A stretch of DNA of 64,000 nt from Octopus vulgaris. Lineage: Eukaryota. Every line of letters begins with the position of its first letter. Within the stretch, counting starts at the first letter, position 1. The translations under genes and the position numbers were made by a program. The notes below the pieces were generated by a model that saw only the letters and a program-made list of their open reading frames with translations, was not told where the DNA came from and made no database searches. This document shows positions 1,575 to 63,215 of the stretch, one piece after another. The stretch is taken from NCBI GenBank assembly GCA_951406725.2, contig OX597820.1, positions 52,824,001 through 52,888,000 on the forward strand, read 5' to 3'.

Positions 1575-1785
1575 TTTGAAAATTTTGGTACAAAGCCAGC
1601 ATCTTTGAAGGAAGGGATAACTCGATTAGATTGGCCCCAGTTTTCTACTGGTACTTCTTTTATTAACCCTGAAAGGATGAACGACAAAGTCGACCTCGGT
1701 GGAATATCAATTCAACGTAAAGACAGACGAAATACTGCTATGCATTTCACTTAGCAAGCTAACGTTTCTGCCAGCTCACCGCCTT
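1575..1785 (-). mobile_element. SINE family D (Nin/Deu-like core)
   Basis: Reverse complement of ggcggcgagctggcagaaacgttag...gtcgactttg.c.ttcatccttt; many copies in the window. Confidence 0.8.
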
Positions 1786-1793
1786 TAACTATA

Positions 1794-2258
1794 TGCGATT
1801 GTGCAAGGAACAGGATCTGTCCACTTAACTCTAGTTCTAGGTGTAAAAATATCATATAAAGAAGTAAGGTTACCTTAGAGAATAGGGAGTACTTCTATAT
1901 CGGAGCTAGCTCACGTTATATTAAGTAAAGAATCACCAATCATTTAAATTCGTTTAAATATAGGAACACGATGAGTGCTATTAGTCTTAGTAAATTAATC
2001 TGGAAGTTAAAAGTTAGTAACAAAGTATCCTCGATTGCTTGTGAAATAATCAGTATTGCAAAACATTCTGGAATAGACGATAATAGATGTGACCTTTGTG
2101 TGGAAGAAATGCACCAAATTATCACTTCTAAATTTACTCTTTTAAACACAAGACAGAGACAGGTTCTAAGCTGTCCATACTTGAGAAAATATACGTTGAA
2201 ACAATCTAAATATACACAAGTCACCATCTGTAGTTACAATATTGATTACAATAATTAA
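1794..2258 (+). pseudogene. Decayed Penelope-like (Hydra-like) GIY-YIG endonuclease C-terminal region
   Basis: Frame from 1794 reads CDCARNRICPL..KNII*..EYFYIGASS..K*RITNHLNSFK..SLSKLIWKLK..RCDLCVEE..LLNTR..C, with two in-frame stops. Same motif string as 53185-53442. Confidence 0.8.
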
Positions 2259-2535
2259 TGATATTTATAGAAATAATATTAATAATAATAAGAACAATAC
2301 TATTAATGGAGGGTATAAACCCAAAATAAGTAAAATACTTCTGAATGAATAATGTACTCCATAGAGCAATGTGTAAATATTACTGCTACAATTAAGTGAA
2401 ATCAAAAGAAACATTTTAAAACCACGCTTCAACTGTAATACCAATTCATTAAAAAAATAGCGCTATCACCTTCAGCTGGAAACCAACGCAGAACACTTGT
2501 TTGAATCAGCTGAATAGGAAAACGCCGTGAGTGAT

Positions 2536-2622
2536 GGGCCCTTGATGAAACTGGTGCGACTAGAATGCATAACTGCATACAGAGCAATGTGCAGTCGTTG
2601 CAGTCGAAACATATGCAGGTCA
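2536..2622 (+). ncRNA. Degenerate type I hammerhead-like motif in PLE 3' end
   Basis: ggcc-cTTGATGA-a-actg.gcgact...agtcgt.cagt-c-GAAA-CATATG-CA-ggtc. Long stem II and palindromic stem III; cleavage triplet mutated. Confidence 0.5.
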
Positions 2623-2724
2623 GAGTTATATATGCTGCATTAAAATTTTGAATAAATAAGTTTTGGATGTGAATAAATTTCTACTCTTCTCTTCGTTCTC
2701 AATTATATGTAAGTATGCATATAT

Positions 2725-5839: not shown

Positions 5840-5954
5840 GACAGAGACAGAGAAGGATGGAGAGAAGTAAAGAGATTTCGTCTTCAAAACAAAAGGATCT
5901 GCGTTCAAGCCTCCTGTGCGGCTACTTAGACTAGCCTCTGTTTTTTTTTCTTTT

Positions 5955-6134
5955 ATTTGTTTCAGTCATGCTGGAGCACCGCCTTTAGTGGAGCAAATCG
6001 ATCCCAGGACTTATTCATTATAAGCCTAGTACTTATTCTATCGATCTCTCTTACCGAACTTCTAAGTGACGGGGACGTAAACACACCAGCATTGGTTGTC
6101 AAGCGATGTTGGTGGGGACAAACACAGACACACA

Positions 6135-6177
<43 letters not shown>

Positions 6178-6270
6178 GACGGGCTTCTTTCAGTTTCCGT
6201 CTGCCAAATCCACTCACAAGGCTTTGGTCGGCCCGAAGGTTATAGTAGAATCCACTTGCCCAAGGTGCCG
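5955..6270 (-). mobile_element. SINE family C (internal microsatellite), 5'-truncated
   Basis: Matches 62624-63035 in reverse. Confidence 0.85.
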
Positions 6271-6407
6271 CGCATACATACATACATACATACATACATA
6301 CATACATACATGCATACATACATGCATGCATGCATGCATACATACATACATACATATATACATACATATATACATACATACATATAGAGATAGATAAATA
6401 GACAGAC

Positions 6408-7638: not shown

Positions 7639-8794
7639 TGTATGTATGTATGTATGTATGTATGTATGTATGCATGTATGTGTGTGTGTGTGTATGTATG
7701 TTTGTTTGTTGTATATGTAGATGCATACGCGCTGCGATATTACAGCATGGTTACGATAGTGTGCATCTCTCATCAGTTGGCAAGTTGAAAAGGAAGATCA
7801 AACAGTAATTACATTATACCCCCTCCAACATCTGAGACCTTAATATAGAGGTTGCAGGGACGAGGGGGTATAGGTTGAGTAGAGGCTGGGTTGATAGTGG
7901 TAGTGCTGGTGGTGGCGATGGTGGTGGTGGTAATGTTGGAGGTAGGAGGACGAGGAAGCAAACATGCGATGGTGGCATCGGCCGTTAGTAAAATGTGTAA
8001 ATGAGAGAGATGCATGAAGAAGTCATGCACGTGGAAAGGGATGAGTCGTTGGGAAAAGGGACGGAATCAAAGCAAAAGGATTCTGTGTGGGAGTAGTGAG
8101 TAGTGTTGGGTGTCTTATAGGGCGGCGGGAGGATGCAATCTGCCAGTAAATAGTGACAGGGGAGAATGAGAAGTAAACCGTGTGTGGAAGGAGATGGTGG
8201 TGTGTTTTGCACGGCAGGGGGCGTAGTTGATGTGTATGAGCATGGGCTTATGATATATGTGTTTATGTATGTGTGTTTATGTATGTGTGTTTATGTGTGC
8301 ATTTGTGTTCGTGTGTGTCTGTTTGTGAGTGTGTGTGTCTGTGTGTGTGTGTTTAAATGTTGTGACAGCGTGCGTTGTCATGGGTTAATTGTGTCTGTAT
8401 TTGTGTTTACGTGTTTATGCTTACTGATGTTACAGTCTGTGCGAAAGGCGTAACTGTGTGCATGCTTGTACATGTGTATGCGTGTGTGTGTGTGTGTGTA
8501 TGTGTGTGTATGTGTGTGTGTGTGTGTGCGTGTGTGTGTTTGTGTCTAGATTTTTGTAATTTTTGCTTTTGTAAGTATGTTCGCATAAAATAACTTCGTA
8601 GTAATGTGTTCCTTTTTTGTGTATTTTATGTATATATATATATGTGTATGTGTGTGTGTATTTGTGTATGTGTGTGTCTTGTGTGTGTATGCGTGTGTAT
8701 GCGTGTGTGTGTGTTGTGTGCGTGTGTGTGTGTTGTGTGCGTTGTTGTTGTTGCTGTTTTTGCTGTTCATGTTACTGACGTTTAGCTCTTTACT

Positions 8795-8972
8795 CTTTCT
8801 TATTGCTTCAGTTAGTTGACTGTGGCCATGCTGGAGCACCGCCTTTAGTCGAGCAAGTCGCCCCCAGGACTTATTCTTTGTAAGTCTAGTTTCGTTTGCT
8901 GAACCACTAAGTTACGGGGAGAAAACACACCAGCATCAGTTGTCAAGGGATGTTGGGGGGACAAACACAGAT

Positions 8973-9037
<65 letters not shown>

Positions 9038-9208
9038 TACATATATGCGACGGGCTTCTTTTCAGTTTACGTCTACCAAATCCACTCACAAAGCTTACGT
9101 CGGCCCGAGGCTATAGAAGACACTTGCTCAAGGTGCCACGCAGAGAGACTGAACCCGGAACCATGTGGTTGGTAAGCAAGCTACTTACCACACAGCCACC
9201 CCTACGCC
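8795..9208 (-). mobile_element. SINE family C, full length
   Basis: Minus strand ggcgtaggggtggctgtgtggtaag...ggcggtgctccagcatggcc. Confidence 0.9.
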
Positions 9209-9679
9209 TAGAAAATCTTTGTTGAGACATATGATCAAAATCCTACCAGCCGTGACCATTCCGTTTTTTGGTTCTATGGCTGTATCGCGTAATGCTTCCC
9301 CCTAAATTAAAGAATTATAGAATTAGCTATTATTTCTAGCAGGTCAAGCTATTACGCAGTGGCACTTATTGTCTAACTATGCGTATTTGTTGCTATCTAG
9401 CCCCTTCTCAGTCCTGTCAGAACAAGCATATGATCAAAGGTATTCCATTTGTGAACATGCTGTCTATTTCTCTATGAGTTTAGAATCAAGTCCATATGAC
9501 ACAATACGACATTTTCTTCGGCTATGGCGTGTCATTTGAAAGAGGTTTTGCTAGGCTAGTGACTTTGTGTTGTCTGTGTGTTTATGACTATAGACTTTTC
9601 TATTTAGTTTTCCATTTTGCAATTTAGCCCAAACTAATCCCTGATACTCTGTTACATACATCGTTTCTTTTGTTTCTTT

Positions 9680-9900
9680 TGGGTGTGTTTCATTCCATTC
9701 CACTGCGGCCATGATGAAGCGCCGCTTTGAACAATTTTAGTCGAACGAATCGACTCCTGTTGTATTTTTTTAAGATTCATCCTAATTCTATTGATTTCTT
9801 TTGCCGAACCTCTACGATATGGGGACGTAAGCACACCATCAACGGTTGTCAAGTGGTGGTGGTGGTGGTGGGGGGGACAAACAGAAACACACACACTTGT
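9680..9900 (-). mobile_element. SINE family C, 3' half
   Basis: gcggccatg..., tttgccgaacc, ggggacgtaa.cacacca, ggttgtcaag match family C. Confidence 0.75.
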
Positions 9901-9928
9901 GTATGTCTATATACATATATATATATAA

Positions 9929-12419: not shown

Positions 12420-12737
12420 TTACGGAGATGTACTTGCATAGCGAGTGACTTGATCTGAGATCGTGTGCTGGGACGAAAACAATTGCAGCGTAGAAGGTGT
12501 TTATAAGCCATTTAAGAAACACACAAAACCGTTAGATTCACTTCAGCATTTAAATTTAAGTTGTCAAAATATTTTCGTCGCTTTGAGACCGCGACCTGTT
12601 CACTGACAAAGCTTCGTACTGCATCTCTCAAAGTGACGAAAATATTTTGACAAATTAAATTTAAATGTTGAAGTGAATCTAACGGTTTTGTGTGTTTCTT
12701 AAATGGCTTATAAACACCTTCCACGCTGCAATTGTTA
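12420..12737 (-). mobile_element. Fold-back PLE-derived insertion
   Basis: ~110-bp inverted arms (~12478-12588 and ~12627-12737) plus a ~60-nt unpaired tail at 12420-12477. Further copies at 26100-26280 and 57500-57585. Confidence 0.8.
12561..12609 (-). ncRNA. Type I hammerhead-like motif with swapped G3-C8 core
   Basis: ttgtca GTGAACA g gtcgc ggtctcaaa gcgac GAAA atat TT tgacaa. Perfect 6-bp stem I, 5-bp stem II, palindromic stem III. Confidence 0.7.
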
Positions 12738-22566: not shown

Positions 22567-22958
22567 TCTTTTACTTGTTTCAGTCATTTGACTGCGGCCA
22601 TGCTGGAGCACCGCCTTTAGTCGAGCAAATCGACCCCGGAACTTATTCTTTGTAAGCCCAGTACTTTTTCTATCAGTCTCTTTTGCCGAACCGCTAAGTG
22701 ACGGGGACGTAAACACACCAGCATCGGTTGTCAGGCAATGCTAGGGGGACAAACACAAACACACACACACATACATATATATATATACATATATACGACA
22801 GGCTTCTTTCAGTTTCCGTCTATCAAATCCACTCACAAGGCATTGGTCGGCCCGGGGCTATAGCAGAAGACACTTGCCCAAGATGCCATGCAGTGGGACT
22901 GAACCCGGAACCATGTGGTTGGTTAGCAAGCTACATACCACACAGCCACTCCTGCGCC
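22567..22958 (-). mobile_element. SINE family C, full length
   Basis: Near-identical reverse copy of 62624-63035. Confidence 0.9.
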
Positions 22959-22974
22959 TATATGGCTGTGTTAT

Positions 22975-26099: not shown

Positions 26100-26280
26100 T
26101 GCAGCACGGAAGAGATCGCGGTTTCAAAGCGACGAAAATATTTTGGTAACTTATATTTAACAGTTGAAGTGAATCTAACGTTTTTTGTGTGTTTTTAAAT
26201 GGCTTATAGACACCTTCCACGCTGCAATTGTTTTTGTTGATCACAGATCAATTCACTTGCTATGCAAGTGCAACTCCTAT
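26100..26280 (+). mobile_element. Truncated copy of the 12420-12737 family
   Basis: tcgcggtttcaaagcgacgaaaatatttt...gaagtgaatctaacg...caccttccacgctgcaattg...gctatgcaagt. Confidence 0.8.
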
Positions 26281-26338
<58 letters not shown>

Positions 26339-26472
26339 ATTATTATTATATATACATACACATATATAAACATTTATACATGTCTGTGTGTATATATGTA
26401 TATATGTATATATATGTATATATAAATATATATATGTATATATCTATGTATGTATATGTATATACATATGTT

Positions 26473-26578
<106 letters not shown>

Positions 26579-26749
26579 AGGATGAAAAGTAAGTAACACA
26601 CGACATGGAAAAAAAGTTAAAAGAAAAGTTGTTTTTTAAAATAATATTTGTATAGTGTTCAAATACAAGTGGCATTTTCCTTGTTTCTGCCTCTCTCTGT
26701 CTCTCTTGTTTACTCTTGTGGGTTCGAAGTCGTTGTGAATTCTTGGTGG

Positions 26750-27141
26750 GGAAGAAGAAGAAGAAGAAGAAGAAGAAGAAGAAGAAGAAGAAGAAGAAGA
26801 AGAAGAAGAAGAAGAAGAAGAAGAAGAAGAAGAAGAAGAAGAAGAAGAAGAAGGAAGGGGAAGGAGGAGAAGGGGAAGAATAATGATAATAATTTGGGAG
26901 TGCCATGGCAGTAGTATTTTGAATGATCAGTGGATGGTAGCAGTCGCTGTTCAATTCATGAAAATATTTCTTTTGAATGCTTTCTTTATAGAATTTGCGT
27001 AGGTGTTATTCTAAAAAGCATTAGTGATAAAGTTAGGAAGGAGAAGGAAGGAGACGAAGAAGAAGAAGAAGAAGAAGAAGAAGAAGAAGAAGAAGAAGAA
27101 GAAGAAGAAGAAGAAGAAGAAGAAGAAGAAGAAGAAGAAGA
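26750..27141. repeat. Two (AAG)n microsatellites (26750-26852, 27056-27141)
   Basis: Directly visible. Confidence 0.95.
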
Positions 27142-27503
27142 ATGGAGAATAAGAATGAATGTAGATAGTGTGAAAGTAGTAAGGTGTTAAATAACTTAAA
27201 ATTAGCCCGTTATGGATTATAGCAGTGATTGGGACCGTTTTTTTAATGAATTCTTGGGAATCTCTTGAGTGTATCATTTTTAATATTTGCGTGTGTATTT
27301 GTGTTATTCTAAGGCCGAGGGGGATATGTTGATTGTCGTAGACGCGTTCAGAAGGGGGCATGTATTTTGTAATAAAGAGATTTTCTTTACTAAATCGTTG
27401 GCTCCAGGTTGTATCCTCCCTGAATTGGTAGAGGGGAAAAATTCACCTGATATACACACTAACCTTTTCTTTTAATTTTTCTAAATTTAATTATTTAATT
27501 GTT

Positions 27504-29020: not shown

Positions 29021-29829
29021 ATGATCTAGAATGTATGACCCCAGTTATCTTTGTTTACGGTCGGTCTGATTCCATTTCTAACCCTTTTTTTTCTTCTTTT
29101 TTTGAAAACATTTATGCATTTATTTTTTCTATCATGTTTTCCTCCATCTTAAAGAGAAAACCCAATATACACCAAATAAACCCTAGCTAACCCTTCATTT
29201 TTCTTCTCCCTTCCTCCTCCACGCCACCCCACCCCAACCCCCTCCGGCTAGGTTCTAAGGCGTTTTCTGACCTTTCTATTTTTTTTTTCCTTACACCCTT
29301 TTGCTTCTCCGAGGATTTGACCTTTGCTAATATATTCCCACCACACTTCTGCAGCCCCAACTTTGAAAGGGTCAGCTCATTGATTATGTCTGTCGGAGTA
29401 ATTTTTTTATAATTCCCCTGCTTCTGCTGTTGTTGCTGCTTCGACCGCTGCTGTTGCTGCCGCCGCTGTTGCTATTAGTGTTTTTCTTGTTTTGCACTTC
29501 ATAGAATTATTTTTGTTATTGACGTTATTAATGTCTTTGCTGTAATTACCGATGTTATTTTCCTTGTGTAGTTTATGTATTTATTTTTTTTTCGTTATTG
29601 TGTAGTCAGCGTTGTTGTTAAGTCACCGTTGTTCTTAATCTTTCTGTTGTAGACACTCATGTTCTATTTTCATTGTAGTTGTTGTGGAGTCAACGTTGTC
29701 GTTCTTATATTTTCCTTTGATTTTCCTTGTAGTTACAGCCGTTGTGTTTTCGCATTGTTGTTGCTGTTTATGTGTAATCAATGTTGTATTTGTATTGTAG
29801 TTGTTGTATTTATATTTTGTTCTTATACG

Positions 29830-29994
29830 GGCGCAGGAGCGGCTGTGTGGTAAGTAGCTTGCTTACAAACCATATGGTCATGGGTTCAGTTCCACTGCGT
29901 GGCACACCTTGGGCAGGTGTTTTCTACTATAGCCTTCGGCCGACCAAAGCCTTGTGACAGAATTTGGTTGACGGAAACTGGAAGAAGTCCGTCG

Positions 29995-30074
<80 letters not shown>

Positions 30075-30310
30075 GTATGTGTGTATGTGTGTATATGTTT
30101 GTGTGTCCGTGTTTGTCCCCCCGAACATCGCTTGACAACCGATGGAGGTGTGTTTACGTCCCCGTACCTTAGCGGTTCGGCAAAAAGACCGATAGAATAA
30201 GTACTAGGTTAACACAGAATAAGCCCTGGGGTCGATTTACTCGACTAAAGACGGTGCTCCAGCATGGCCGCTGTCAAATGACTGAAAGAAGTAAAAGGGA
30301 GTAAAAGAGA
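29830..30310 (+). mobile_element. SINE family C, full length
   Basis: ggcgcaggagcggctgtgtggtaagtagc...cggtgctccagcatggcc..aaatgactgaaa. Confidence 0.9.
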
Positions 30311-30607
30311 AAGAGAGTGTCGTTCTCATGTTTTCTTCAAAATCTCTTCATCAAGACATTTCGACAAATTGTTCTCATATTTTCCTTTCATATTCCCTGT
30401 AGTTACTGCCGTTGTTTTTTCGTATTGTTGTTACTGGTTGTGTGTAATCGATGGTGTATTTCTTTCTTGTCCGTTATGTTGTTTTAGCCATTACTATTGT
30501 ATTTGTCGCTGCTGTGGTGGTTCTGGATGTAACTGCTGTGTTTTCATTACTGAGTCCCTGAATCAGTTGTTGTCGTTGTTGTTGACTTGATTATCTCCAG
30601 GTCAGTC

Positions 30608-36433: not shown

Positions 36434-36437
<4 letters not shown>
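35758..36437 (+). mobile_element. Cluster of about four co-oriented SINE family D copies
   Basis: Repeated heads (cggcgagctggca, ggcggaatggttag, ggcgaggtgg, ggcggcgtgctgacag) with core and tail pieces. Confidence 0.8.
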
Positions 36438-36479
<42 letters not shown>

Positions 36480-36518
36480 AAAAAAGGTTTGAAAATGCAA
36501 TTTAAACGATGTTTATTT

Positions 36519-36559
36519 ACTTAACCGGTTTCACTCTTTGGTAAAAGATTGTCAAAAGT
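36519..36559 (-). ncRNA. Hammerhead-like motif (U3-A8 core), left arm copy
   Basis: Exact reverse complement of 41296-41336. Confidence 0.6.
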
Positions 36560-36579
36560 TACATTTAAGGAAACATTGA

Positions 36580-36760
36580 ATAATATGGGTTCAAAAAAAG
36601 TTTTTTACATAATTGTCACATTGAATATTATGCATTCAAAAAAGTTTTTTACATAATTGTCACATTGGATATTATGAATTCAAAAATGTTTTTTACATAA
36701 TTGTCACATTGGATATTATGAATTCAAAAATGTTTTTTTATACATAATTGTCACATTATT
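36580..36760. repeat. ~44-bp minisatellite, 4 units (5 units in the right arm, 41053-41280)
   Basis: Unit contains tacataattgtcacatt; counted directly in both arms. Confidence 0.9.
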
Positions 36761-37337
36761 TGGGAAAATTTGGCAGAAAAGGATAAAACAAATATATTAT
36801 TGGGAATTGGTTGCGTTAATTATTGGTTGTCGCAAATTGTCACATTACATGTATATATATACAATCTTTGGTATATATATACAGCGTTTTGACAGCAAAA
36901 ATTAAAATGGCTTTTTTGTACATCTCAGAATATTTTAAGTATGTTTTTACTGACCTGTCAGTATTAGCAGAAAGGCTGAACTGAGAGAACAGAAGAAGTA
37001 GCCAATGTGGTGTATACTTCCCCTTTATGCATGAATGATTTTGGGGTTATCAGGAGGTTAGTATGCGGGTGTGAATAGATGTGTCCGTGCCTGCTGGTCA
37101 GACAGCATCTGTTTGTCACACACATATATATACACACAAACACACACACACACAACAACACACACACACACACACACATAGTATACAAACACACACCACA
37201 TACAAACAACACACACACACACAGAACACACACACCCACACACAACGCACCCACATATATCACATATACACACAGCACACAAATATAACATGTATCTATA
37301 TATAACATACACAGATATATAACACACATACACACAC

Positions 37338-37372
<35 letters not shown>

Positions 37373-37976
37373 CACACGCACACATACATACATAATATAA
37401 ATATCACACAAATACACCTAGCATATATATACACACATACAATACACACATACAGCATGTAAGTAATATACATACACAATATATGCATGCAATATACATA
37501 CGTAATACATACATATAATATATATATATATAGACAATGCATATACATATATACACATATACATATAAATAGTGTTTACATACACATACATAGATGTACC
37601 ACATATACACACAACACACATACATACAATGCATACACATACACATACGCATACATATAATATATATATACACACACACACACATAACATACATACACAC
37701 ACAATGCATACATATATATACACGCAATGCATATACATGTATTCATGCACATATAGCACACCTACAATATACATATATACAGTGCACACATACACACAAA
37801 TATATACACTTAATTGTACACGTACATATACAATACACATACATACAATATACATATACACAATGCGCATGCAAATAATGTACATGTTTATACACACATA
37901 AACATGCAAATAAATATACACACACACACATACACACACACACATATATATACACATATATATATATATACACACA

Positions 37977-39229
37977 AATTTATTCTGCAAAACAACTTCA
38001 TGTATTTCCACAACAACACTTACAGACAGGTCTCAGGGACTGCAATGGGTACGAAAGTTGCACCTACCTATGCAAACCTGGTGATGGCCTACCTGGAATC
38101 ACATATCTATGAAAAATCCAAATATAAGTACGGCCAGTCTTTCCACAAATACCTGTTGGAGAACTGGAAACGCTACTTAGATGATTGCCTCATCCTATGG
38201 TCCCACACACTCGACCAACTTATAGACTTCAAAAACCTTATCAACAGTGTAAATAACAACATTCAATTCACAATGGAATATAGTCAGGACCAACTCCCTT
38301 TTCTTGACATCCTAATCATTAAAAAAGGCGTCAACATTGAAACTGACATCCATTACAAACCCACTGACTCTAAACAATACCTTCTATTCACCTCCAATCA
38401 CCCAAAACACACAAAGACAAATATCCCCTTCAACCTAGCGAGAAGAATCTGCACTATTGTCTCAAATGACACAACACGAAATAGAAGACTCCGGGAACTA
38501 AGGGCAATTCTTCTCGAAAGACATTACCCGGCATCACTAGTAGACAACGGAATAGAACGGGCCAAATCAATCAACATTCAAGACCTTCGAAAACCCAAAC
38601 ACATCCACAGTACAGTCAATAGCCTCCCTTATCTCTCAACACACAACCCAAGGAATGCAGAAGCTTACACTATTATATACAACAACATTCCACAACTAAA
38701 TCAAGACCCACGCCTGAAAAAAATACTGGCAGCTCATAAAATAATAAAAAGTAAGAGACAACCTAAATCCCTAAAAAACCTCCTCACCAACGCAAAATTA
38801 CACAACACAAACCCACCGCCCACCATCAAAAAATGTGGTCGCCCCAACTGTAAGACCTGCATCCACCTCATTGAGGGATCGTCGTACAAGTTCCACTCGG
38901 GACACACATTCATCATAAAAAATAACTTCACGTGCGCATCAAAAAATTTACTCTACGTCATAAGGTGTGAAGGATGCCACGAAGACTACATAGGGCAAAC
39001 GAGCCTTACCCTCAGAGACAGAATGACAGTTCACCGACAACAACTGAGGGACCCCTCCACAAGACAGATACCACTAAGTGGACACTTAGACCTTTGTGCA
39101 CACAATAAGTCCCCCAAATTCTTAGTCTTCCCACTATACCAATGCTCGGACAACACCACAGACCAAACACGAATAAATAAGGAAAGTAATCTTATTCAAA
39201 AATACAGACCACAACTAAACATACTCTAA
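37977..39229 (+). CDS. 5'-truncated PLE reverse transcriptase (motif B' onward) plus thumb, Cys linker and GIY-YIG endonuclease
   Basis: QVSGTAMGTKVAPTYANL, WKRYLDD, LPFLD, YKPTD..YL..SNHP, CGRPNCKTC, NLLYVIRCEGCHEDYIGQT..LRDR..H, E..LI..LN; no internal stops. The first ~54 codons of the listed ORF are microsatellite from the inverted arm. Confidence 0.95.
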
Positions 39230-39543
39230 CATACCCCCTGGAAGCACATCCAGAGCAAGCACACAGGGACGCGCGCACGCTCACAGCATATCGTGCGGGC
39301 GGGCACATGCGCGCATCGGCACGCATAGGACACACTAGCGGGCATTGACCGCACACATACGTGGCATGCACACGCATGCATTATATATATGTAGGTGATG
39401 TATGTGTGTGAGTGTTGTGTGTGTGTGTGTGTGTGTGTGTGCACTGTGTGCGTGTGTGTGTATATGTGTGTGTGCGCGCGTTGTTTGTGTGTGTGTGTGT
39501 GCACGTGTGTATATATGTGTGTGTGTGTGTGTGCACTGTGTGC

Positions 39544-39576
<33 letters not shown>

Positions 39577-40438
39577 CATTGTGTACGTGTGTATGTATTT
39601 ACATATGTATCTGTTTTTATATATATATATATATGTGTGTGTGTGTTGTGTGTGTATATGCATGGTATGTGTGTATATGTTAGTACTTTGTTTGTGTGTA
39701 TGTGCGGCATGTAGAGATATATTTGAGTGTGTACGCTATAGGTTTGTAATTTGTGTGTGTGGGGGGTGGTGAATTTTATATATATATATATGTGTGTGAA
39801 AAAATATATGTATGTGCATGTATGTATGTATGTATGTGTGTATATATATATATATGTGTATATATATGTGTGTGTGTGTATGTGTGTGTGTGTATATTTA
39901 TTTGCATGTTTATGTGTGTATAAACATGTACATTATTTGCATGCGCATTGTGTATATGTATATTGTATGTATGTGTATTGTATATGTACGTGTACAATTA
40001 AGTGTATATATTTGTGTGTATGTGTGCACTGTATATATGTATATTGTAGGTGTGCTATATGTGCATGAATACATGTATATGCATTGCGTGTATATATATG
40101 TATGCATTGTGTGTGTATGTATGTTATGTGTGTGTGTGTGTATATATATATTATATGTATGCGTATGTGTATGTGTATGCATTGTATGTATGTGTGTTGT
40201 GTGTATATGTGGTACATCTATGTATGTGTATGTAAACACTATTTATATGTATATGTGTATATATGTATATGCATTGTCTATATATATATATATTATATGT
40301 ATGTATTACGTATGTATATTGCATGCATATATTGTGTATGTATATTACTTACATGCTGTATGTGTGTATTGTATGTGTGTATATATATGCTAGGTGTATT
40401 TGTGTGATATTTATATTATGTATGTATGTGTGCGTGTG

Positions 40439-40489
<51 letters not shown>

Positions 40490-41295
40490 TTATATATCTG
40501 TGTATGTTATATATAGATACATGTTATATTTGTGTGCTGTGTGTATATGTGATATATGTGGGTGCGTTGTGTGTGGGTGTGTGTGTTCTGTGTGTGTGTG
40601 TGTTGTTTGTATGTGGTGTGTGTTTGTATACTATGTGTGTGTGTGTGTGTGTTGTTGTGTGTGTGTGTGTTTGTGTGTATATATATGTGTGTGACAAACA
40701 GATGCTGTCTGACCAGCAGGTACGGACACATCTATTCACACCCGCATACTAACCTCCTGATAACCCCAAAATCATTCATGCATAAAGGGGAAGTATACAC
40801 CACATTGGCTACTTCTTCTGTTCTCTCAGTTCAGCCTTTCTGCTAATACTGACAGGTCAGTAAAAACATACTTAAAATATTCTGAGATGTACAAAAAAGC
40901 CATTTTAATTTTTGCTGTCAAAACGCTGTATATATATACCAAAGATTGTATATATATACATGTAATGTGACAATTTGCGACAACCAATAATTAACGCAAC
41001 CAATTCCCAATAATATATTTGTTTTATCCTTTTCTGCCAAATTTTCCCAAATAATGTGACAATTATGTATAAAAAAACATTTTTGAATTCATAATATCCA
41101 ATGTGACAATTATGTAAAAAACATTTTTGAATTCATAATATCCAATGTGACAATTATGTAAAAAACTTTTTTTGAACCCATAATATCCAATGTGACAATT
41201 ATGTAAAAAACTTTTTTGAATGCATAATATTCAATGTGACAATTATGTAAAAAACTTTTTTTGAACCCATATTATTCAATGTTTCCTTAAATGTA

Positions 41296-41336
41296 ACTTT
41301 TGACAATCTTTTACCAAAGAGTGAAACCGGTTAAGT
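41296..41336 (+). ncRNA. Hammerhead-like motif (U3-A8 core) near the PLE 3' end
   Basis: actt TTGACAA tcttt tacc aaaga gt GAAA ccgg TT aagt. Confidence 0.6.
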
Positions 41337-41413
41337 AAATAAACATCGTTTAAATTGCATTTTCAAACCTTTTTTCTTATATAATCCCACTCGTGCGATA
41401 CCCCACAACTCAA

Positions 41414-41482
<69 letters not shown>

Positions 41483-50692: not shown

Positions 50693-51070
50693 TAACGGAA
50701 AACACTCAATCTCATCAACTCCTCTTCAGTTATCGGCCAGGGAGACAAACGCAATTTCGGCCATTAGCGATAATATTACTTCCACTCTGGAGGCACCGGC
50801 AAGAAACTTGCTGGGAATGAGACCAAAACATAACCAAACGAGACGATCTCGAGATGAGAGCGTTAATTGATGGACGAGGGATAAGACAATAAATAGAATA
50901 TGGGCTTGGATCCCAAACGAAGACAACAATTAAAATGATAATAATACATGAATACATCTACAGCAAAAAAAAATGGCTTAAGGCTGCAAGACAAGACAAA
51001 AAGGGTAACGTGAAACAGAAATGAAAAACTGTCCTAACGAACAATGTATGTGTGAGTATATGAATGTATA

Positions 51071-51134
<64 letters not shown>

Positions 51135-51329
51135 TGTGTACACTCACTTTCACAGTGTTTGTTGGGTATTTGATTAATGAGAGAGACAGAAGACGGAAGA
51201 TACGAAAATGTTTATTGAACACTTGAATTGTTTCAATTCAACTAATACCGATGCTAAAGGAGTCCAAAGAATTGCAGTGATCAATGAACATTCTCGTATC
51301 TTCCATCTTCCATCTCTCTTAGCAATCAA

Positions 51330-51391
<62 letters not shown>

Positions 51392-51567: not shown

Positions 51568-51975
51568 ATTTTTAAAAAACGTGTAGTAAATAAATATACA
51601 GGCATATACTAAATACACAGACGAACGGAAAACACACAAGATCACCAACTCCTTTTCAGTTATCGGCCGAAGGATGGATTGCAATTTCGGCCATAATCGA
51701 TAATATAGCTTCCACTCTGGGGGCACCGGCAAGAAACTTGACGAGAATGGGACCAAAACGCAACAAAGCGAGACGAGCTCGAGACGAGCTCGAGACGAGA
51801 CCGTTAATATACGAACGAGGGATAAGACTATTAACAGAATAAGGGCTTCGTTCCCACAGGAAGACAACAATTAAAATGATAAAAATACATGTACAGCAAA
51901 AAATGCCGCAGGGCTGCAAGACAAGATAAAAAAGGGTAATGCGAAGGAGGAATGAAAAACTATCCTAACGGACAA
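50693..51975. repeat. Two diverged direct copies of a ~350-bp unclassified repeat (50693-51043, 51624-51975)
   Basis: Colinear blocks aacggaaaa..caactcct.ttcagttatcggcc..cttccactctgg.ggcaccggcaagaaacttg..gacgagggataagac..ggctgcaagacaaga..tcctaacg. Confidence 0.85.
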
Positions 51976-52258: not shown

Positions 52259-52276
52259 TATTATATATATAGAAGG

Positions 52277-52327
52277 AGCTTCTACAGGACTAGTACTGTT
52301 TCATTCAAGAGAAATCTTCAGGAAGCT
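52277..52327 (-). ncRNA. Type I hammerhead ribozyme motif, left arm copy
   Basis: Exact reverse complement of 56661-56711. Confidence 0.8.
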
Positions 52328-52502
52328 ATTTAACAAGAATTGTATTAGCATTTATACATTTAGGCAGGTTTAAAGGAGTGGTGGTGGGGGACTTTTTTGG
52401 GGGTAGGCATAGCGCAAAATATCATACTTGGGGGAGTGGTCAAGGAGTCAGAGGTAAGTTAGATGAAAGAATAGATAAATAAAAAAATAAAAAAATAAAA
52501 AA

Positions 52503-52543
<41 letters not shown>

Positions 52544-52772
52544 AAAATAAAAAATAAAAAAATAAAATAAAAAAATAAAAAAATAAAAAAATAAAATAAA
52601 AAAATAAAAAATAAAAAATAAAAAAATAAAAAAATAAAAAATATATATAAAAAATATATATATAAAAAATATATATATAAAAAAGGGGGGATAGAGTTAT
52701 AGGTAAATAAGGAGATTCTCACTTATACCTATACACATATGTATACGTATCTACACACATATATATACACAC

Positions 52773-52819
<47 letters not shown>

Positions 52820-53121
52820 TACACACACATATACATACATATCTACATACACACATACATACACCCGCCCACATATACAAATTTATACACATGCACATGC
52901 ATATACCTGTCTACACATACACACACGTATATATGCATACACTCACTCCCATGCATGCACGCATACACACATGTATATATATACCCACGACCACGCATAC
53001 ATATATACACAGAAAAATATATATTCACACGCACATACACTCATGCACACACAACACACCTAGTTCCCTATATACACATATTTACACCTATATATACATA
53101 CACCCACATACACATATGTAC

Positions 53122-53152
<31 letters not shown>

Positions 53153-53184
53153 CAACCAAACTACTAATCCAACCAAATTAATCC

Positions 53185-53442
53185 AACCAAACTACCCACG
53201 CCGCCCACATCTGGTACCTTAAAAGGAACTCAATCCCCTTCAAGACCAAGTGGAAACTACTACAGAAGGCGCGCTCGTACACAGGAGGACATACCTGCTG
53301 TGACCTATGCATATCAGAGAGCCTAGAGATCTTGTTCGCCAAAGGCCCTCTCCTTAACAAATTTTCAGAACACTCCCCAAATTGCATGCATAAAAAGTAT
53401 GCGAACTACAAGAACTATAGACCTACCCAGCAACCTGATTGA
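53185..53442 (+). pseudogene. Last 85 codons of a Hydra-like PLE ORF (no start; absent from the ORF track)
   Basis: NQTTHAAHIWYLKRNSIPFKTKWKLLQKARSYTGGHTCCDLCISESLEILFAKGPLLNKFSEHSPNCMHKKY...QPD*: the IW.LK / KW / CxLC..E / LLN..SE / C.H motif string. Confidence 0.85.
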
Positions 53443-53678
53443 TGACAACCCCCCCCTACAACCCCCCCCCCAACCCCACTGTTCCCCTAGCACCCCCGAT
53501 TACCTTTTCTCCTAAGACCTTTCACATATTGTATGTGCACGCTTGTATATGTGTATCGTATGTATGTATATATGTATAGAAATGCATGGGTACAGTAGGA
53601 ATATACGCATGTATTATGTGTGTGTGTGTGTGTGTATGTATGCATGTAAAAATATATATGTGTGTATATATATTTGCA

Positions 53679-53711
<33 letters not shown>

Positions 53712-54348
53712 GCTTGCATGTGTGTGTGTGTGTATATATGTATATGTGTTTGTATGTATATGTGTATATATGTATATGCATGTGTATGTGTAAATGTATG
53801 TGTTTATGTATGTGTATGTATGTATAAAATATTATATAATTAGGGCTTAGTAAAATAAAATAAATTACTTTGCCACATACTAAACTTTCTAGAAATAGCA
53901 GCCAATAAAGGGTTTTAGCCTCTTCCACTACTTAGAGAATTTTTTCCCTCTAACATTGTTTACTCAAAATAATAATGGTCCCTTTACATACTGAATACTT
54001 GGTGAAATTGATTAATAACTAATTAACTTTACCCTCCCTTGTTGATATATATGTATGTATATGTGTACATGTATGTATATATATGTGTGTGTGTGTATGT
54101 GTGTATGTATGTACTTGTATATGTGTGTGTGTATATGTATGTGTGCGCGTGTGTGTGTATGTATGTGTATGTATATTTATATATGTATATGCATGTATAT
54201 ATATGTGTGTGTATATGTGTATTATGTATGTATTTATATGGATATGATATTTATATATATATGTATGTATATGCATCTGTCTGTGTGTGTGTATGTGTAT
54301 ATATGTGTATCATTATTGCGTATGTATACATGTATATGTGTATATGTA

Positions 54349-54429
<81 letters not shown>

Positions 54430-54514
54430 ATGTACATGTATATATATGTGTGTGTATATATATATATATGTTTATATGTGAGTATGTAGAGATATAAGTA
54501 TATGCATGTGTATA

Positions 54515-54549
<35 letters not shown>

Positions 54550-54702
54550 GTATGGGTATGTGTATCAGTGTATATGTATATATGTATGTGTGTGTGTATG
54601 TATAGGTATGTATATGTGTATATATGTATGTGTATATGTGTATATATGTGTATATATATGTATGTATGTGTATGTGTATGTATATGTATGTGTGTGTATG
54701 TG

Positions 54703-54762
<60 letters not shown>

Positions 54763-55037
54763 CGTGTGTGTATGTATGCATATATGTATGTATGCATGTA
54801 TATGTGTATGTATATATGTGTGTAGGTGTGTGCATATATGTATATGTAAGTATGTGTGCGTGTATGAGTATGTATGTATGTATGCTTGCACACGTGTATA
54901 TATGTGTGTGTGTGTATATATATGGATGCGCGTGCGTGTGTGCACGTGTATGGGTACGCATGTATATGTGTATGTGCGTGTATGTGTATACGTGTATGTA
55001 TGTATGTGTGTGCGTATATTTGTATATGTATGTGTGA

Positions 55038-55072
<35 letters not shown>

Positions 55073-55276
55073 TGGGTGTGTGTATGCGTATAAATGCATG
55101 TAAGTATGGATGTATGGATGTATGTATGTATGTATACGTATGTATGTGTTTGTGTGTATATGTATGTATGTGTGTGTATGTGTGTATATATATATATGTG
55201 TGTATATATGTTTGTGTATGTATATATATGTGTATGTATGTGTGTGTATGTATATATGTGTGTATGTGTATGTATG

Positions 55277-55346
<70 letters not shown>

Positions 55347-55737
55347 TAGGTATGTATCTGTATGTAGGAGTATATGTGTGTATGTATATGTGTATATATA
55401 TATATATGTATGTATATTTATTGGTGTATATGTATAGACTAGCCTCCTAAAGTGTAGACACGAATCTGTAGGTACGAGTACGTATGTGTATATACGTGAA
55501 CGTATGTAGATGTTTGTATGTATGAATATAACGCGTGCGTACGTGTATGTGTATGAGTGTACGAATGGGTGAATGTACGTGCTAATGAGTGTGCGTGCGG
55601 GAATGAGTACTTGCCTTCTAGTAGACAGACAAATGGACATGCTGCCATAGCCAGGACCCTTAGCTCTAGCGATCAAAGATAACAAAAGTAATAAATGAAG
55701 ATAATAAAATTAAAATTAGGGAATGGGCCTGTATTGG

Positions 55738-55780
<43 letters not shown>

Positions 55781-55879
55781 GTGTATGTGTAGGTATGTAT
55801 AGGTACACATGTGTATGTGTATGTGTATGTATGTGTGTATATGTATGTATGTGCACACATGTATATATATGTATGCGTG

Positions 55880-55917
<38 letters not shown>

Positions 55918-56214
55918 TATGTGTATGTGGGTGTATGTATATATAGGTGTAAATATGTGTATATAGGGAACTAGGTGTGTTGTGTGTGCATGAGTGTATG
56001 TGCGTGTGAATATATATTTTTCTGTGTATATATGTATGCGTGGTCGTGGGTATATATATACATGTGTGTATGCGTGCATGCATGGGAGTGAGTGTATGCA
56101 TATATACGTGTGTGTATGTGTAGACAGGTATATGCATGTGCATGTGTATAAATTTGTATATGTGGGCGGGTGTATGTATGTGTGTATGTAGATATGTATG
56201 TATATGTGTGTGTA

Positions 56215-56267
<53 letters not shown>

Positions 56268-56391
56268 GTGTGTATATATATGTGTGTAGATACGTATACA
56301 TATGTGTATAGGTATAAGTGAGAATCTCCTTATTTACCTATAACTCTATCCCCCCTTTTTTTATATATATATTTTTTATATATATATTTTT

Positions 56392-56433
<42 letters not shown>

Positions 56434-56660
56434 ATTTTATTTTTTATATTTTTATTTTTTTATTTTATTTTTTTTTTTTTTTTTTTATTTTATTTTTTTT
56501 TTTTTTTATTTATCTATTCTTTCATCTAACTTACCACTGACTCCTTGACCACTCCCCCAAGTATGATATTTAGCGCTATGCCTACCCCCAAAAAAGTCCC
56601 CCACCACCACTCCTTTAAACCTGCCTAAATGTATAAATGCTAATACAATTCTTGTTAAAT

Positions 56661-56711
56661 AGCTTCCTGAAGATTTCTCTTGAATGAAACAGTACTAGTC
56701 CTGTAGAAGCT
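56661..56711 (+). ncRNA. Type I hammerhead ribozyme motif, canonical core
   Basis: agcttc CTGAAGA t-ttc tctt gaa-t GAAA cag tactagtc ctg TA gaagct. Predicted cut after GUA at 56705. Confidence 0.8.
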
Positions 56712-56806
56712 CCTTCTATATAATAAATTAATTTTACTCTGCTATGTATTGAGTACCTTACTTACTGTGGTTAACCCCGAATCAACCCGGGACCTACATA
56801 TATAAA

Positions 56807-57246: not shown

Positions 57247-57585
57247 ATAGGAGAAGGAAAGATCCAGAGAAGGGAAGACAGAGGAAAAAAGAGTGAGAAA
57301 GAAGAGAATGAGAGAGAGAGTGAGAGAACATTATTACTCATAAGAGATATCGATATTAGTGGCTGCGCACATAAAACCGTATAGGCAAAGTTAATATATA
57401 TATATATATAATCAGGGCACTAAGAAGCACCAGCTTAGCTAAAAATAATAGTCATATACACTCGTATGGCCTCTAGTCTCTCTGATATATATATTTTTTA
57501 AATGGCTTTTAAACACCTTCCATGTTTTTGTTTCAGCACACGATCTCAGATCAGGTCGCTTACTGTACAAGTACATCTCCGTAAT

Positions 57586-57633
<48 letters not shown>

Positions 57634-60600
57634 TATGTGTGCATGTGTGTATGTGTGTGTGTTTGTGTGTAAATTGTTTACGTATTAATAATGCAACATT
57701 ATAAATACGCACGTCTCACCAGCTAAATTGTTTTTCAACAATAAAGAACGTCGCCGATATAATGACGTATCGCAATTCTTAGGGATATAGTAATTACAAA
57801 CTCACACATAAGGTAATGTAAATTTCTTTAAAATCTGTTAATGTCTCTCTGCACCAAAACATTTTTGGCCAAGCCTTTCGTTATTTTATTTCCTTTTATT
57901 TACACAATAATAATGCTGTATTCAACTGATCTGTCATTTACTTTATCCAATCTTTTTCGTATAGCCTCCAGTCTATCTCATGTAATTAGCTAATTTTTTT
58001 GTTATTGTTTTTGTATTTCATTGTCGTTTTCTGCTTATATCACTGTAATTTGTAGTTTTACTTTCGTTTTGTAGACAATTTTTGTTTCCTGTTTATTTAT
58101 TTTCAAATTCATTTCGTTCTCGTTTTTTTGTCTTTGTAAGAATCATCACTAAGTTTTCATTTTATACTTTTTACATATTTTTTCTTCGCTTATTTTACTG
58201 TTATTTATCTATTTCTTTACCTACAAAACTAAATTGATTTAAATATATGTAAACGTATTTTCCTTCTTCGTTGCCTGTTTCTTTCCACTTATCCGGTTGT
58301 TAGCTTCGATTCTTTTGTCGTTTCGTTTTCCCTTCCATAGCAATGTACATTATACTAAAAGGAAATCGTTCATTTATAAGTTTTAATATGTCGCTCTAAG
58401 TATGCAGCCTGTGTCCTTAATAAGAGCAAAATTTCTGTTACACCTCTGTTAAAAACAAATATGTGATATCAAGTAATCGTTATGCTTATCTATGTTCTCC
58501 CTATCTCCGTCTCTCTCTCGCTCTCTCTCACCTCCTCCTCCTCCCTACTTCTCTTTATTTATCTATGGATACTAGCAAAGCTAATCAGAAACAAAAATAA
58601 CTTTTCACAGTGGGACGAGTTGGCAAGTGGAATACAATTCGGGTACAGAGAGGAAACAAGATCAAATTTATTCGATATTACGAATAACGTAAGAGAGACA
58701 AAATGCCATGCTTAAGAAGCCTTGCCACATGCAATCATTTTGTATAGATGACACATAGAGAAACGCATTTAACGGCAAACATAGACCTGGAGCTACATAT
58801 ATTTCACAATACGCTACATTCTGTACTGACAAGAATAAAATCACTGATGGAATTATTGTATGCATTCTCGAAGCTATCGTACCCTTAATTTTCAGCCACA
58901 TCCAAGTTCAATTTCTGAGAGTCTAATACAATACGTAAAACGAATTATGTCTTTTCTGCATACCGTCTTCAAATCACGATGGTCAATTTGAAGAAAGTTT
59001 CAAAATTATGAATGAGGTACCAATGAAACTGCATCAGCATACTTTTGGATGCATTCTGTGAAAAATAATTTAACAGCACAAACGGCTTTGCAGTTATTGG
59101 TTCTATGACCAATAAACGAAATACTTTATCCCAAGAATACATAAGCATCCAGTTGATTATACACTGCTATTCCAAATCCAAAGTGGTTAGCATCAGGTGC
59201 AACTATCCTTTGGTCATACAATATACAGCGAACATCGACAAATACTTTGGAACACCTGTGTTCACATGCAGAACAATAAATGTTTTCGTCTTGACCAACG
59301 TTATGTAACTATGTTCGGAGAATAAAATTCAAGTGGACTTGGCATCATGGCAAAAACAAAGAATGAAAATGGATTTTTGCAGAGAATGTTGTGTATACAG
59401 AAATTCTGCTGACGTATACGTAATCTCTCTTTCACTGGATTACCACACGTATGTTAATTTCCTCTCTGTTTAAGCAAAGCATTATCCGTTGGAACTACGT
59501 GAGGCAATCAATGACCTTTCATTCAAGCTATTATGTATCGCACTATTTTCTATAACACATGCATTATGCAACTGAGTTCTTGAAAACGAACATGTATATA
59601 TACAGTTCCTACAAAAGATTTATTCAAACAGCACATTTATTAATGCAGTCCTTTACAAATTGTTACGTAACTCTGTAGGTAGTTCTATGTATTGTCAAAC
59701 CTGTACCTACAACATCTTTGTAACACGCTTGCTGTTTATAACATTACATATTGTACCACCCACATCAGAAAAGATCTATGCTTTCGCTTTAGGTTGGAAA
59801 ATAAAGGAAAAAAATTATCTATGATAATACATTGTTGTTATTCTCATCAATTAATTATTCACAAATGTCTCAACAAGTTATATTCCGCAAAGGGCAGTTA
59901 TCTGCCGTTAATGTCTGTTAAGTAATTTAAATATTCAGTGAAAAGTATGAAATGAGATTTTCTGTTCCTCTTAATATTTCCCGTTCATGGGGTGGACATT
60001 AGTTAATAATTCAAGTAAATAAATTTTATAGAGAGAATGGCATTTAAAAGCATAAATTGTCACACGAAATACACACATACACACAAATATGTGCGTGTGG
60101 GTTTTGTGTGTGTGAGTGTATGTGAGTGTATGTGTGCTTGTATGTATATATATGAATATGTAAGTGTGTTCACATATGTATATATACATGTAAACGTTAT
60201 GAAGTTATGTGCAAATCTGTCGGTGTAGGAGTACACTTATATACGAAGAGGAATAATTGTGAGAAATTTTGGAGTGCATTTACTTAGTTCCGTTCACGTT
60301 GTGACTTCAAGTCTAGTCGAGTTCAACTTTGCCCGGTTTTTCATTTCAGGGTAAGCGATAAAGTTGATATGAACTGACTAAGATCGATTTAATCGATTGT
60401 TCCCTACCACAAATATATATGACCATTGAGCCTGTCTTAGAGAGCAACCTTTATTTAAACCCCGTTGCCTTCTGTTTTATAATAAGGCTGCCGTTGTCTG
60501 TGTCTTTCTTTTCTCCCAGGGTCGATTAAAATAAATACCAGGTATATATTGTGCATATTTTATCAAATAGTTCCTCCCTCATAAATTCGTGATGACCTCT

Positions 60601-61918: not shown

Positions 61919-62359
61919 TACGTGTGAGTAACTATACAAATCATCAACATAGAATATCGACAAGGACTAATGCGCTATAAATATCGTAGATATCCTTGAA
62001 GCTCATATTGAATAACTACCAGCCCCATTTAGTTGTATAGTGGAAGCAATTGCAGCGCGAGATACCATCATTTGAGGACCCAGTGTATTTAGCACAGCTG
62101 TCATATGAATCCATATTTGAAATAATAAACATAAACATGACTGTAAAATGGGCTTGTTTATGTTACATCATCAAGGATAAAATCCGGTTGTGGTGCCCTA
62201 TAAGCATATATTTGTACGTACAGTCATGCATACAAACACACACACAAACACGGATATAAGTGGATCGATATATACAAACACACACATACACACACAAACA
62301 CACACATATATACACACACACAAGCACACATACACACATATATATATATATATATATTC

Positions 62360-63215
62360 TTTTATTCTTTTACTTGTTTTAATCATTTGAGAGCGACCAT
62401 GCTGGAGCACCGCCTTAATTGGTTTTATAGTTGAAGTATTTGACCACAAGACTTATTCTTTGTAAGCCTAGTACTTATTCTATTGGTCTCTTTGGCCAAA
62501 CTGCTAGGTTATGGGGACGTAGACACATCAACATCGGTTGTCAAGCGATGTTGGGATGACACACACAGTCACACAGACACACACACTCACACACAGAGAT
62601 ACACACACATATACATATATATAGGCGCAGGAGTGGCTGTGTGGTAAGTAGCTTGCTAACCAACCACATGGTTCTGGGTTCAGTCCCACTGCGTAGCACC
62701 TTGGGCAAGTGTCTTCTGCTATAGCCCCGGGCCGACCAATGCCTTGTGAGTGGATTTGGTAGACGGAAACTGAAAGAAGCCTGTCGTATATATGTATATA
62801 TATATATATATTTGTGTGTGTGTTTGTGTGTCTGTGTTTGTCCCCCTAGCATTGCTTGACAACCGATGCGGGTGTGTTTAAGTCCCCGTCACTTGGCGGT
62901 TCGGCAAAAGAGACCGAAAGAATAAGTACTGGGCTTACAAAGAATAAGTCCCGGGGTCGATTTGCTCGACTAAAGGCGGTGCTCCAGCATGGCCGCAGTC
63001 AAATGATTGAAACAAGTAAAAGAAAGAAAGAAAGAAAGAATATATATATATGTATATATATACGACGGGCTTCTTTCAGTTTCCGTCTATCACATCCACT
63101 CACAAGGCTTTGGTCGGTCCGAGGCTATAGTAAGTCACTTGGGCAAGGTGCCACATCATGAGACTGAACCCTGAACCAAGTGGTTGAGAAGCAAGCTTCT
63201 TTTTACACAACCACG
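62360..63215. mobile_element. SINE C (+, 62624-63035) nested inside SINE C (-, 62360-62570 and 63062-63215)
   Basis: The two minus-strand halves are colinear and are split at the internal microsatellite. Confidence 0.85.

Follow-up and report, generated by a model that had tools for sequence, protein, structure and literature searches.

Does a kilobase-scale compound microsatellite inside a retroelement travel with the element, or does it grow where the element has landed? The question is raised by E1, a Penelope-like element (PLE) of Octopus vulgaris whose 3′ region consists largely of a mosaic of TG, TA and TATG repeats. The original prediction regarded this mosaic as cargo of the element, as opposed to a product of local slippage, and proposed that PLEs both target and disseminate simple repeats in a feedback loop. 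We analyzed E1 and a second element, E2, in a window of 64 kb (the whole stretch of DNA under analysis), which is eukaryotic and rich in simple repeats.

RESULTS

Alternating repeats in the window

Alternating repeats were masked wherever purine/pyrimidine alternation reached at least 84% in 50 bp. The mask covers 21.6% of the whole window (13,799 bases). E1 (36472-41419) and E2 (52261-56797) together contribute 5,036 of the 13,799 masked bases; this share (36% in 15% of the window length) is inflated because the window was picked for these elements, and the remaining 64% lies elsewhere. Of the masked repeat inside the two elements, 1,288 bp belong to the inverted arms. Without E1 and E2, 16% of the window is alternating under the same mask, and the densest outside stretch of 1,314 bp, the length of the E1 mosaic, is 71% alternating.

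Coding part of E1

E1 is 5′-truncated. Its ORF (37976-39229, plus strand) runs uninterrupted by stops or frameshifts through 417 codons, which encode the C-terminal part of a reverse transcriptase (RT), a CX4CxxC linker and a GIY-YIG endonuclease. The product is 76% identical to a 772-aa RT and GIY-YIG protein, starting at residue 355 of that protein, and matches the Pfam GIY-YIG family at the cut-off, giving a PLE-type RT and GIY-YIG in a single ORF. Among named proteins, the closest belongs to Octopus bimaculoides, with identity at 211 of 249 residues, and proteins of Argonauta hians show 60-62% identity. Residues C287, C292, C295, C331, C334, H353 and H370 of E1, invariant in an alignment of 28 sequences, make up a CX2-5CxxC linker and a CCHH motif. 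The available part of a published account (PMC8557442) describes the same arrangement for Neptune, with the linker ahead of a C-terminal GIY-YIG endonuclease that has the CCHH motif. By these motifs E1 is assigned as a Neptune-type PLE; the label is a motif-based one, since the linker is common to Nematis too.

The 3′ region of E1 and its mosaic

The 3′ region of E1 extends over 2.19 kb (39230-41419). It had originally been described as being itself about 1.3 kb of microsatellite; a mosaic of this size is present (1,314 bp; 39380-40693, plus strand), but it takes up about 60% of the length. The remainder is made up of a GC block and 350 bp of unique sequence, together with a minisatellite of 44-bp units, a hammerhead motif and a tail. 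The GC-rich block, also recognized in the original prediction, occupies 39230-39380 on the plus strand, directly 3′ of the stop codon. With 62% GC and CA/CG steps, it is the most GC-rich 150-bp window in the 64 kb. The possibility that it represents a structured RNA was rejected (z = -1.74; 13 of 200 shuffles fold equally well).

The mosaic itself is an internal part of the element, with the stop codon on one side and the predicted ribozyme on the other. Alternating tracts cover 95% of it, with TG and TA accounting for 58% and 35% of the YR steps, respectively, and 161 breaks in purine/pyrimidine alternation divide it into dozens of short runs. Where long ORFs cross the mosaic, they are artefacts of translating dinucleotide repeats. 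We found no higher-order duplication inside the mosaic above Markov controls: its 36 repeated 14-mers are equalled by 31 of 300 order-3 and 243 of 300 order-5 simulations, and for the E2 mosaic the corresponding value is under all Markov controls. Because internal repetition does not rise above these controls, the evidence for an origin by slippage comes down to composition and to the indels between the arms described below.

Downstream of the mosaic, on the plus strand, E1 continues with unique 3′ sequence (40694-41052), about five units of the 44-bp minisatellite just upstream of the ribozyme motif (41053-41282) and, past that motif, a 36-bp tail (41384-41419) that is present at the right end only.

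The inverted arm of E1

To the left of its ORF, E1 carries a second, 5′-truncated copy of its 3′ end in inverted orientation (36472-37976, minus strand), which is the reverse complement of 39835-41383. The two arms are identical at 1,502 of 1,503 aligned positions. The sole substitution (40721) falls outside the mosaic, in the unique 3′ sequence, and three indels of 1, 2 and 45 bp account for the other differences. The minisatellite has five units at 41053-41282 and four in the arm at 36573-36757, a whole-unit change between arms otherwise one substitution apart. Such arm differences may stem from reverse-transcriptase error, later mutation or sequencing error.

Of the 1,314 bp of mosaic, only 859 bp (39835-40693) are duplicated in the arm. 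The inverted copy of this segment (37117-37976) matches it at 858 positions, without a mismatch and with 3 gap bases, as good as the original prediction had it for 39835-40690. Nine control tracts aligned in the same way, that of E2 included, gave tens to about 150 mismatches. Neither the GC block (39230-39380) nor the tail is present in the arm.

(TA)n runs border E1 on the left (36437-36477, the target) and on the right (41420-41480). E2 is likewise bordered on both sides, and the original observation that both elements sit in (TA)n can thus be read directly in the sequence. Outward of these flanks the sequence is not duplicated in either case, and a target-site duplication is unreadable within (TA)n. 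In both E1 and E2 the two arms terminate at the element 3′ end; the inner arm junction of E1, at 37976, has an overlap of about 1 nt. The E1 arms differ by 1 substitution in 1,503 positions and the 417-codon ORF is unbroken, which points to a young insertion.

Inverted 5′-truncated copies, one-sided tails of 30-40 bp, ribozymes and a (TA)n bias have all been described for PLEs (Craig 2021; PMC8557442). As far as the available part of that description goes, E1 resembles Neptune-clade PLEs in its RT, CX2-5CxxC linker, C-terminal GIY-YIG and 5′ truncation, and equally in its inverted 5′-truncated copy, 30-40-bp tail, 3′ hammerhead and (TA)n site.

Predicted hammerhead ribozymes

A minimal type-I hammerhead is predicted in E1 at 41296-41336 (plus strand), with a U3-A8 core variant, a palindromic helix III and predicted cleavage after 41332; its mirror in the arm lies at 36519-36559 (minus strand). 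In E2, a type-I hammerhead is predicted at 56661-56711 (plus strand), with predicted cleavage after 56705 and a mirror at 52277-52327 (minus strand). A generic descriptor, composed after the motifs had been spotted by eye, returned four motifs in the 64 kb, one at each arm end of the two elements (mean 0.3 and maximum 2 in 40 shuffles). Narrow Rfam scans gave no significant ribozyme match (HH9 at E = 4.1 for E1, none for E2), and the best 150 of 257 matches in an Rfam scan of 36000-58000 were only microsatellite-like miRNA under gathering scores. A U3-A8 core and a palindromic helix III are described for PLE ribozymes, minimal PLE hammerheads, in the accessible text of PMC4209133.

E2, a second mosaic-bearing element

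E2 is a Hydra-clade PLE with the same layout as E1. Its inverted arm (52261-53154, minus strand) is the reverse complement of 55878-56726 and has (TA)n at its left. At the inner junction (53153-53195, plus strand) an 8-mer is present three times, likely the result of reverse-transcriptase stutter. The ORF remnant (53182-53442, plus strand) comprises the last 86 codons of a Hydra-clade GIY-YIG endonuclease, for which we found 898 relatives at E <= 0.001. C40, C43, E46, N59, C68 and H70 are invariant in 13 sequences and comprise the Hydra-clade CxxC and CxH motifs with the conserved E and N. The CxCX5C linker, RWK and DKT motifs belong to the part lost from E2 by truncation; CxCX5C is present in several E2 homologues. 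According to the available part of PMC8557442, Hydra-clade PLEs including Hydra-1_Obim share with E2 the CxxC and CxH motifs around conserved E and N, the (TA)n site and a hammerhead core beginning with CUGAAGA. The endonuclease tip of E2 deviates from its homologues at several usually conserved positions near the final N and CxH. Because of these departures, the E2 donor may have been defective and mobilized in trans.

Directly after the E2 stop codon there is a C-rich block (53443-53520, 54% C), which parallels the GC block of E1. Its C runs could, as a prediction from sequence, correspond to a G-quadruplex on the opposite strand. The TG/TA mosaic follows (53520-56320, plus strand); it is 85% alternating and includes two non-repeat islands (~53830-54040 and ~55430-55740). 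The original prediction noted here about 2.7 kb of similar mosaic. Its length (2.8 kb) and make-up agree with this, but the two mosaics are unrelated in sequence, their longest common word being 31 nt of simple repeat, and homology between them was rejected. Only 447 of the ~2,800 bp (55878-56324) are duplicated in the E2 arm, with 439 identities, 0 mismatches and 2 TA-unit indels. Outside the mosaic, the arms differ by about 54 bp in the length of a T-rich tract and by 2 substitutions in 212 positions of the unique end. At its right end only, E2 is extended by about 70 bp (56723-56797, plus strand), more than the usual PLE tail of 30-40 bp, and (TA)n comes next. In all, E2 provides a case independent of E1, from the Hydra clade.

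Just left of E2, a diverged (79%) direct duplication (50694-51044 and 51624-51975) surrounds a short self-inverted repeat (51167-51332) and (TA)n.

Related elements and other repeats

To see how general such mosaics are, we turned to 37 related loci from a genome contig collection, likely host contamination in bacterial assemblies. Of these, 26 were dropped, 5 were unmeasurable and 6 were measured. All 26 come from one metagenome-assembled genome and appear to have a decayed RT with no endonuclease end (two were inspected, and one was compared with six others). These loci (L007, L009-L010, L012-L018, L020-L021, L023-L024 and L026-L037) form ~10-kb repeats, 88-99% identical, on contigs filed as bacterial, and are likely eukaryotic macrosatellite contamination or large tandem duplications. 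Five loci (L006, L008, L011, L022 and L025) were left out owing to a broken ORF or a contig ending before the endonuclease end; none of them has an alternating tract. In L003 and L004 the 3′ sequence was too short for measurement.

A ribozyme core was detectable in four of the six tested relatives, and their stop-to-ribozyme distances are 190, 212, 386 and 762 nt, compared with 2,071 nt in E1 and 3,225 nt in E2; these relatives are distant (28-44% protein identity) and belong to other hosts. The three shortest spacers (190, 212 and 386 nt) contain zero alternating DNA, whereas the 2.07-kb spacer of E1 is mostly simple repeat. Since the spacers of all four relatives are much shorter than those of E1 and E2, the mosaic looks like a later gain. 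Published Hydra elements, within the material available (PMC8557442), are under 3 kb with short 3′ regions, and the stop-to-ribozyme distance of Hydra-1_Obim is about 126 nt as judged by eye. All six Hydra consensus sequences examined in the supplement, one of them from O. bimaculoides, have short 3′ regions and by eye no mosaic, with the proviso that repeats may have been trimmed in consensus building.

Smaller tracts do occur. In L019 the stop codon is directly followed by short (CA)n and (TA)n tracts, and a (TA)n(TG)n tract separates two partial-tandem 3′ units. The PLE-X2_cBra consensus, in the portion of the PMC8557442 supplement at hand, has, within its 3′ region, a CA/TA mosaic of ~200 nt. 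PLE 3′ regions with small tracts are thus not rare, and tracts of kilobase size seem to have been gained in particular lineages. As to whether the mosaic is a clade-wide feature, the evidence speaks against it. No second copy of either the E1 or the E2 family was found in the window or among the 37 loci.

The window also holds two further PLE remnants. One is an old, decayed Hydra-clade end (1758-2715, plus strand) with several stops and a ~460-bp 3′ region without mosaic, followed by (TA)n (2719-2774). For this element, at 1758-2255, the 3′ region is 5% alternating. The other (26100-27442, minus strand) retains a Neptune-like endonuclease tip of about the last 29 codons (27356-27442), after which come two (TTC)n arrays and a CA/TA tract. 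The tract (26280-26575) is shorter than the mosaics of E1 and E2 and has the opposite polarity, being CA-rich on the coding strand. No ribozyme core was found at this remnant.

Two further repeat families were noted in the window. A non-coding repeat of ~400 bp, SINE-like by impression only, occurs at 5937-6274, 8794-9210, 22567-22963, 29824-30314 and 62619-63023, with partial copies at 9664-9921 and 62330-62614. Of seven aligned copies, five span the site of an internal (CA)n(TA)n tract; in all of these the tract has the same position, and its length differs from copy to copy. The other family lies beside TA runs (12424-12736, 26109-26277 and 57494-57636); its self-inverted pair at 12.4-12.7 kb is possibly a non-autonomous element with a PLE-like inverted insertion.

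DISCUSSION

Origin of the E1 mosaic

We consider it probable that the E1 mosaic arrived as cargo from a donor copy, in which it had earlier grown by slippage or capture, and that the RNA was reverse-transcribed twice into (TA)n. That the mosaic travelled with this insertion and predates it is very likely, because 161 breaks in alternation would need far more time than a young insertion, with an intact ORF and one substitution, has had. The original opposition between cargo and local slippage therefore holds in its first half: the mosaic is inside the element and very likely older than the insertion. As an alternative, however, it is a false choice, because most differences between the arms are indels of repeat units, and in composition the mosaic is like the background tracts.

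The course of the insertion might be pictured as follows. The GIY-YIG endonuclease would nick (TA)n, which reads identically on either strand, and each free end would prime cDNA synthesis from the 3′ end of the RNA, starting at, or close to, a TATATA word beside the ribozyme. One cDNA would have reached ~3.4 kb and the other ~1.5 kb, their truncated 5′ ends joining at 37976. Repeat units would go on slipping, during or after copying; continued slippage is suggested by the prevalence of repeat-unit indels among the arm differences, for which sequencing error is another possible source. In the donor lineage, the mosaic probably originated either in the way of the background tracts, through slippage and decay, or through target repeats being captured between tandem 3′ units, an arrangement comparable to that in L019. 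Preferential breakage within the mosaic was considered and set aside: both inner breakpoints fall inside it, yet the mosaic makes up a third to half of each template, and two cases therefore carry little weight.

A broader reading is that the mosaic is fixed family-wide in active PLE families and that PLEs are a leading source of compound microsatellites in this genome, which is the original feedback loop taken in its strong form. Two unrelated clades carry mosaics, E1 and E2 hold a disproportionate share of the masked bases, part of it in their arms, and there are precedents in shrimp (PMC7878876) and in snake LINEs (PMC6050309), in so far as the available parts of these papers report them. 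We nevertheless regard this reading as unlikely. The two arms of E1 stem from one event and one donor, so they demonstrate the mosaic for that donor but not for the whole family. The share of masked bases is inflated by the choice of window, and most alternating DNA lies outside the two elements. In addition, the 3′ region of the old Hydra element is almost free of alternating repeats, the accessible Hydra consensuses have short 3′ regions without a mosaic (possible trimming aside), and the non-coding repeat family likewise has internal (CA)n(TA)n.

Could the mosaic instead have grown, or pre-existed, at the locus, with the arm as a later inverted duplication at the DNA level or a fold-back artefact of sequencing or assembly? 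Near-identical inverted arms are a known class of artefact, and the window outside the elements is itself 16% alternating. A later duplication or artefact is disfavoured because the arms end at the element 3′ end, by the ribozyme, the flanks are unduplicated and the tail is one-sided. Moreover, the arms stop in this way in two separate elements, those of E1 differ by a whole 45-bp unit, and its ORF is intact. We therefore hold this explanation to be very improbable. Marginally less credible still is selection of a UG-rich tract for a role in RNA, be it protein binding, stability or double-stranded RNA that the inverted arm would give rise to. On the coding strand both mosaics are rich in TG (TG skew +0.72 to +0.89), opposite to the A/C-rich ORF. 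Two cases, however, agree by chance half the time, and the tracts in L019, at 26280-26575 in the remnant and in the PLE-X2_cBra consensus have CA-rich coding strands. Moreover, the E1 and E2 mosaics have no common sequence, and relatives manage without a mosaic.

Of these readings we prefer transport from a donor copy. In all likelihood, the mosaic rides along neutrally and belongs to the particular donor lineage or family instead of characterizing the clade.

PLEs and the spread of simple repeats

The feedback loop in the original prediction is plausible, and transport of simple sequence repeats (SSRs) by Penelope elements has been proposed as a route to SSR expansion in shrimp (PMC7878876). 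Its reach in this window is limited by the 64% of alternating DNA outside E1 and E2, the mosaic-free old Hydra PLE and the non-coding carriers. Because the ~400-bp non-coding repeat carries (CA)n(TA)n too, repeat transport is not special to PLEs here. A single insertion can nevertheless add kilobases of repeat, as follows from the 5,036 masked bases held by E1 and E2, 1,288 of them in the arms.

Among published systems, Penelope copies of Litopenaeus vannamei that are >98% identical have internal SSRs in common, later elongated (Yuan et al. 2021, PMC7878876). Judging from the accessible part of this work, SSRs within young copies move along, as in E1; the shrimp evidence consists of two dispersed copies, whereas that for E1 is the inverted arm of a single insertion. 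For the shrimp SSRs, the accessible text mentions neither the PLE clade, nor a place in the 3′ region, nor compound structure at the kilobase scale. In snakes, CR1-L3 and Rex LINEs seed microsatellites (Pasquesi et al. 2018, PMC6050309). Simple repeats there spread from a retroelement 3′ end, again as in E1, although in the text available the repeat is a single motif, AATAG, forming a terminal tail, and in E1 it is an irregular dinucleotide mosaic, internal and upstream of the ribozyme. For O. vulgaris, 31 recently active Penelope-like families are reported in the accessible part of PMC13282606. The available portions of PMC3124438, PMC9659126 and bioRxiv 10.64898/2026.07.22.740005 contain nothing specific to mosaic-bearing PLEs. 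Likewise, a literature search with most subscription papers and repeat databases outside its scope yielded no description of Neptune or Hydra elements whose 3′ regions hold compound microsatellites of kilobase length. The PLE architecture and PLE-borne microsatellites are already known; what is unusual is the kilobase spacers and their presence in two unrelated clades within 20 kb.

The general principle having been published, the gain here is a clear and large example. The inverted arm of E1 provides a built-in pair in which slippage and substitution can be compared within a young insertion. Slippage alone hardly accounts for long compound microsatellites. Should PLE families transport mosaics of kilobase size, the same irregular microsatellites are expected at unlinked loci, with a bearing on the origin of repeat-rich invertebrate genomes, on marker design and assembly, and on repeat annotation, in which such elements would be split and their 3′ parts counted as simple repeat. 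It is a rather doubtful, more far-reaching proposition that in octopods unrelated PLE clades have converged on family-fixed, kilobase UG-rich 3′ regions and that PLEs are a main engine of the cephalopod simple-repeat load. If this were true, each (TA)n insertion would leave one or two ready-made compound microsatellites, new TA targets and an inverted repeat of 1-1.5 kb.
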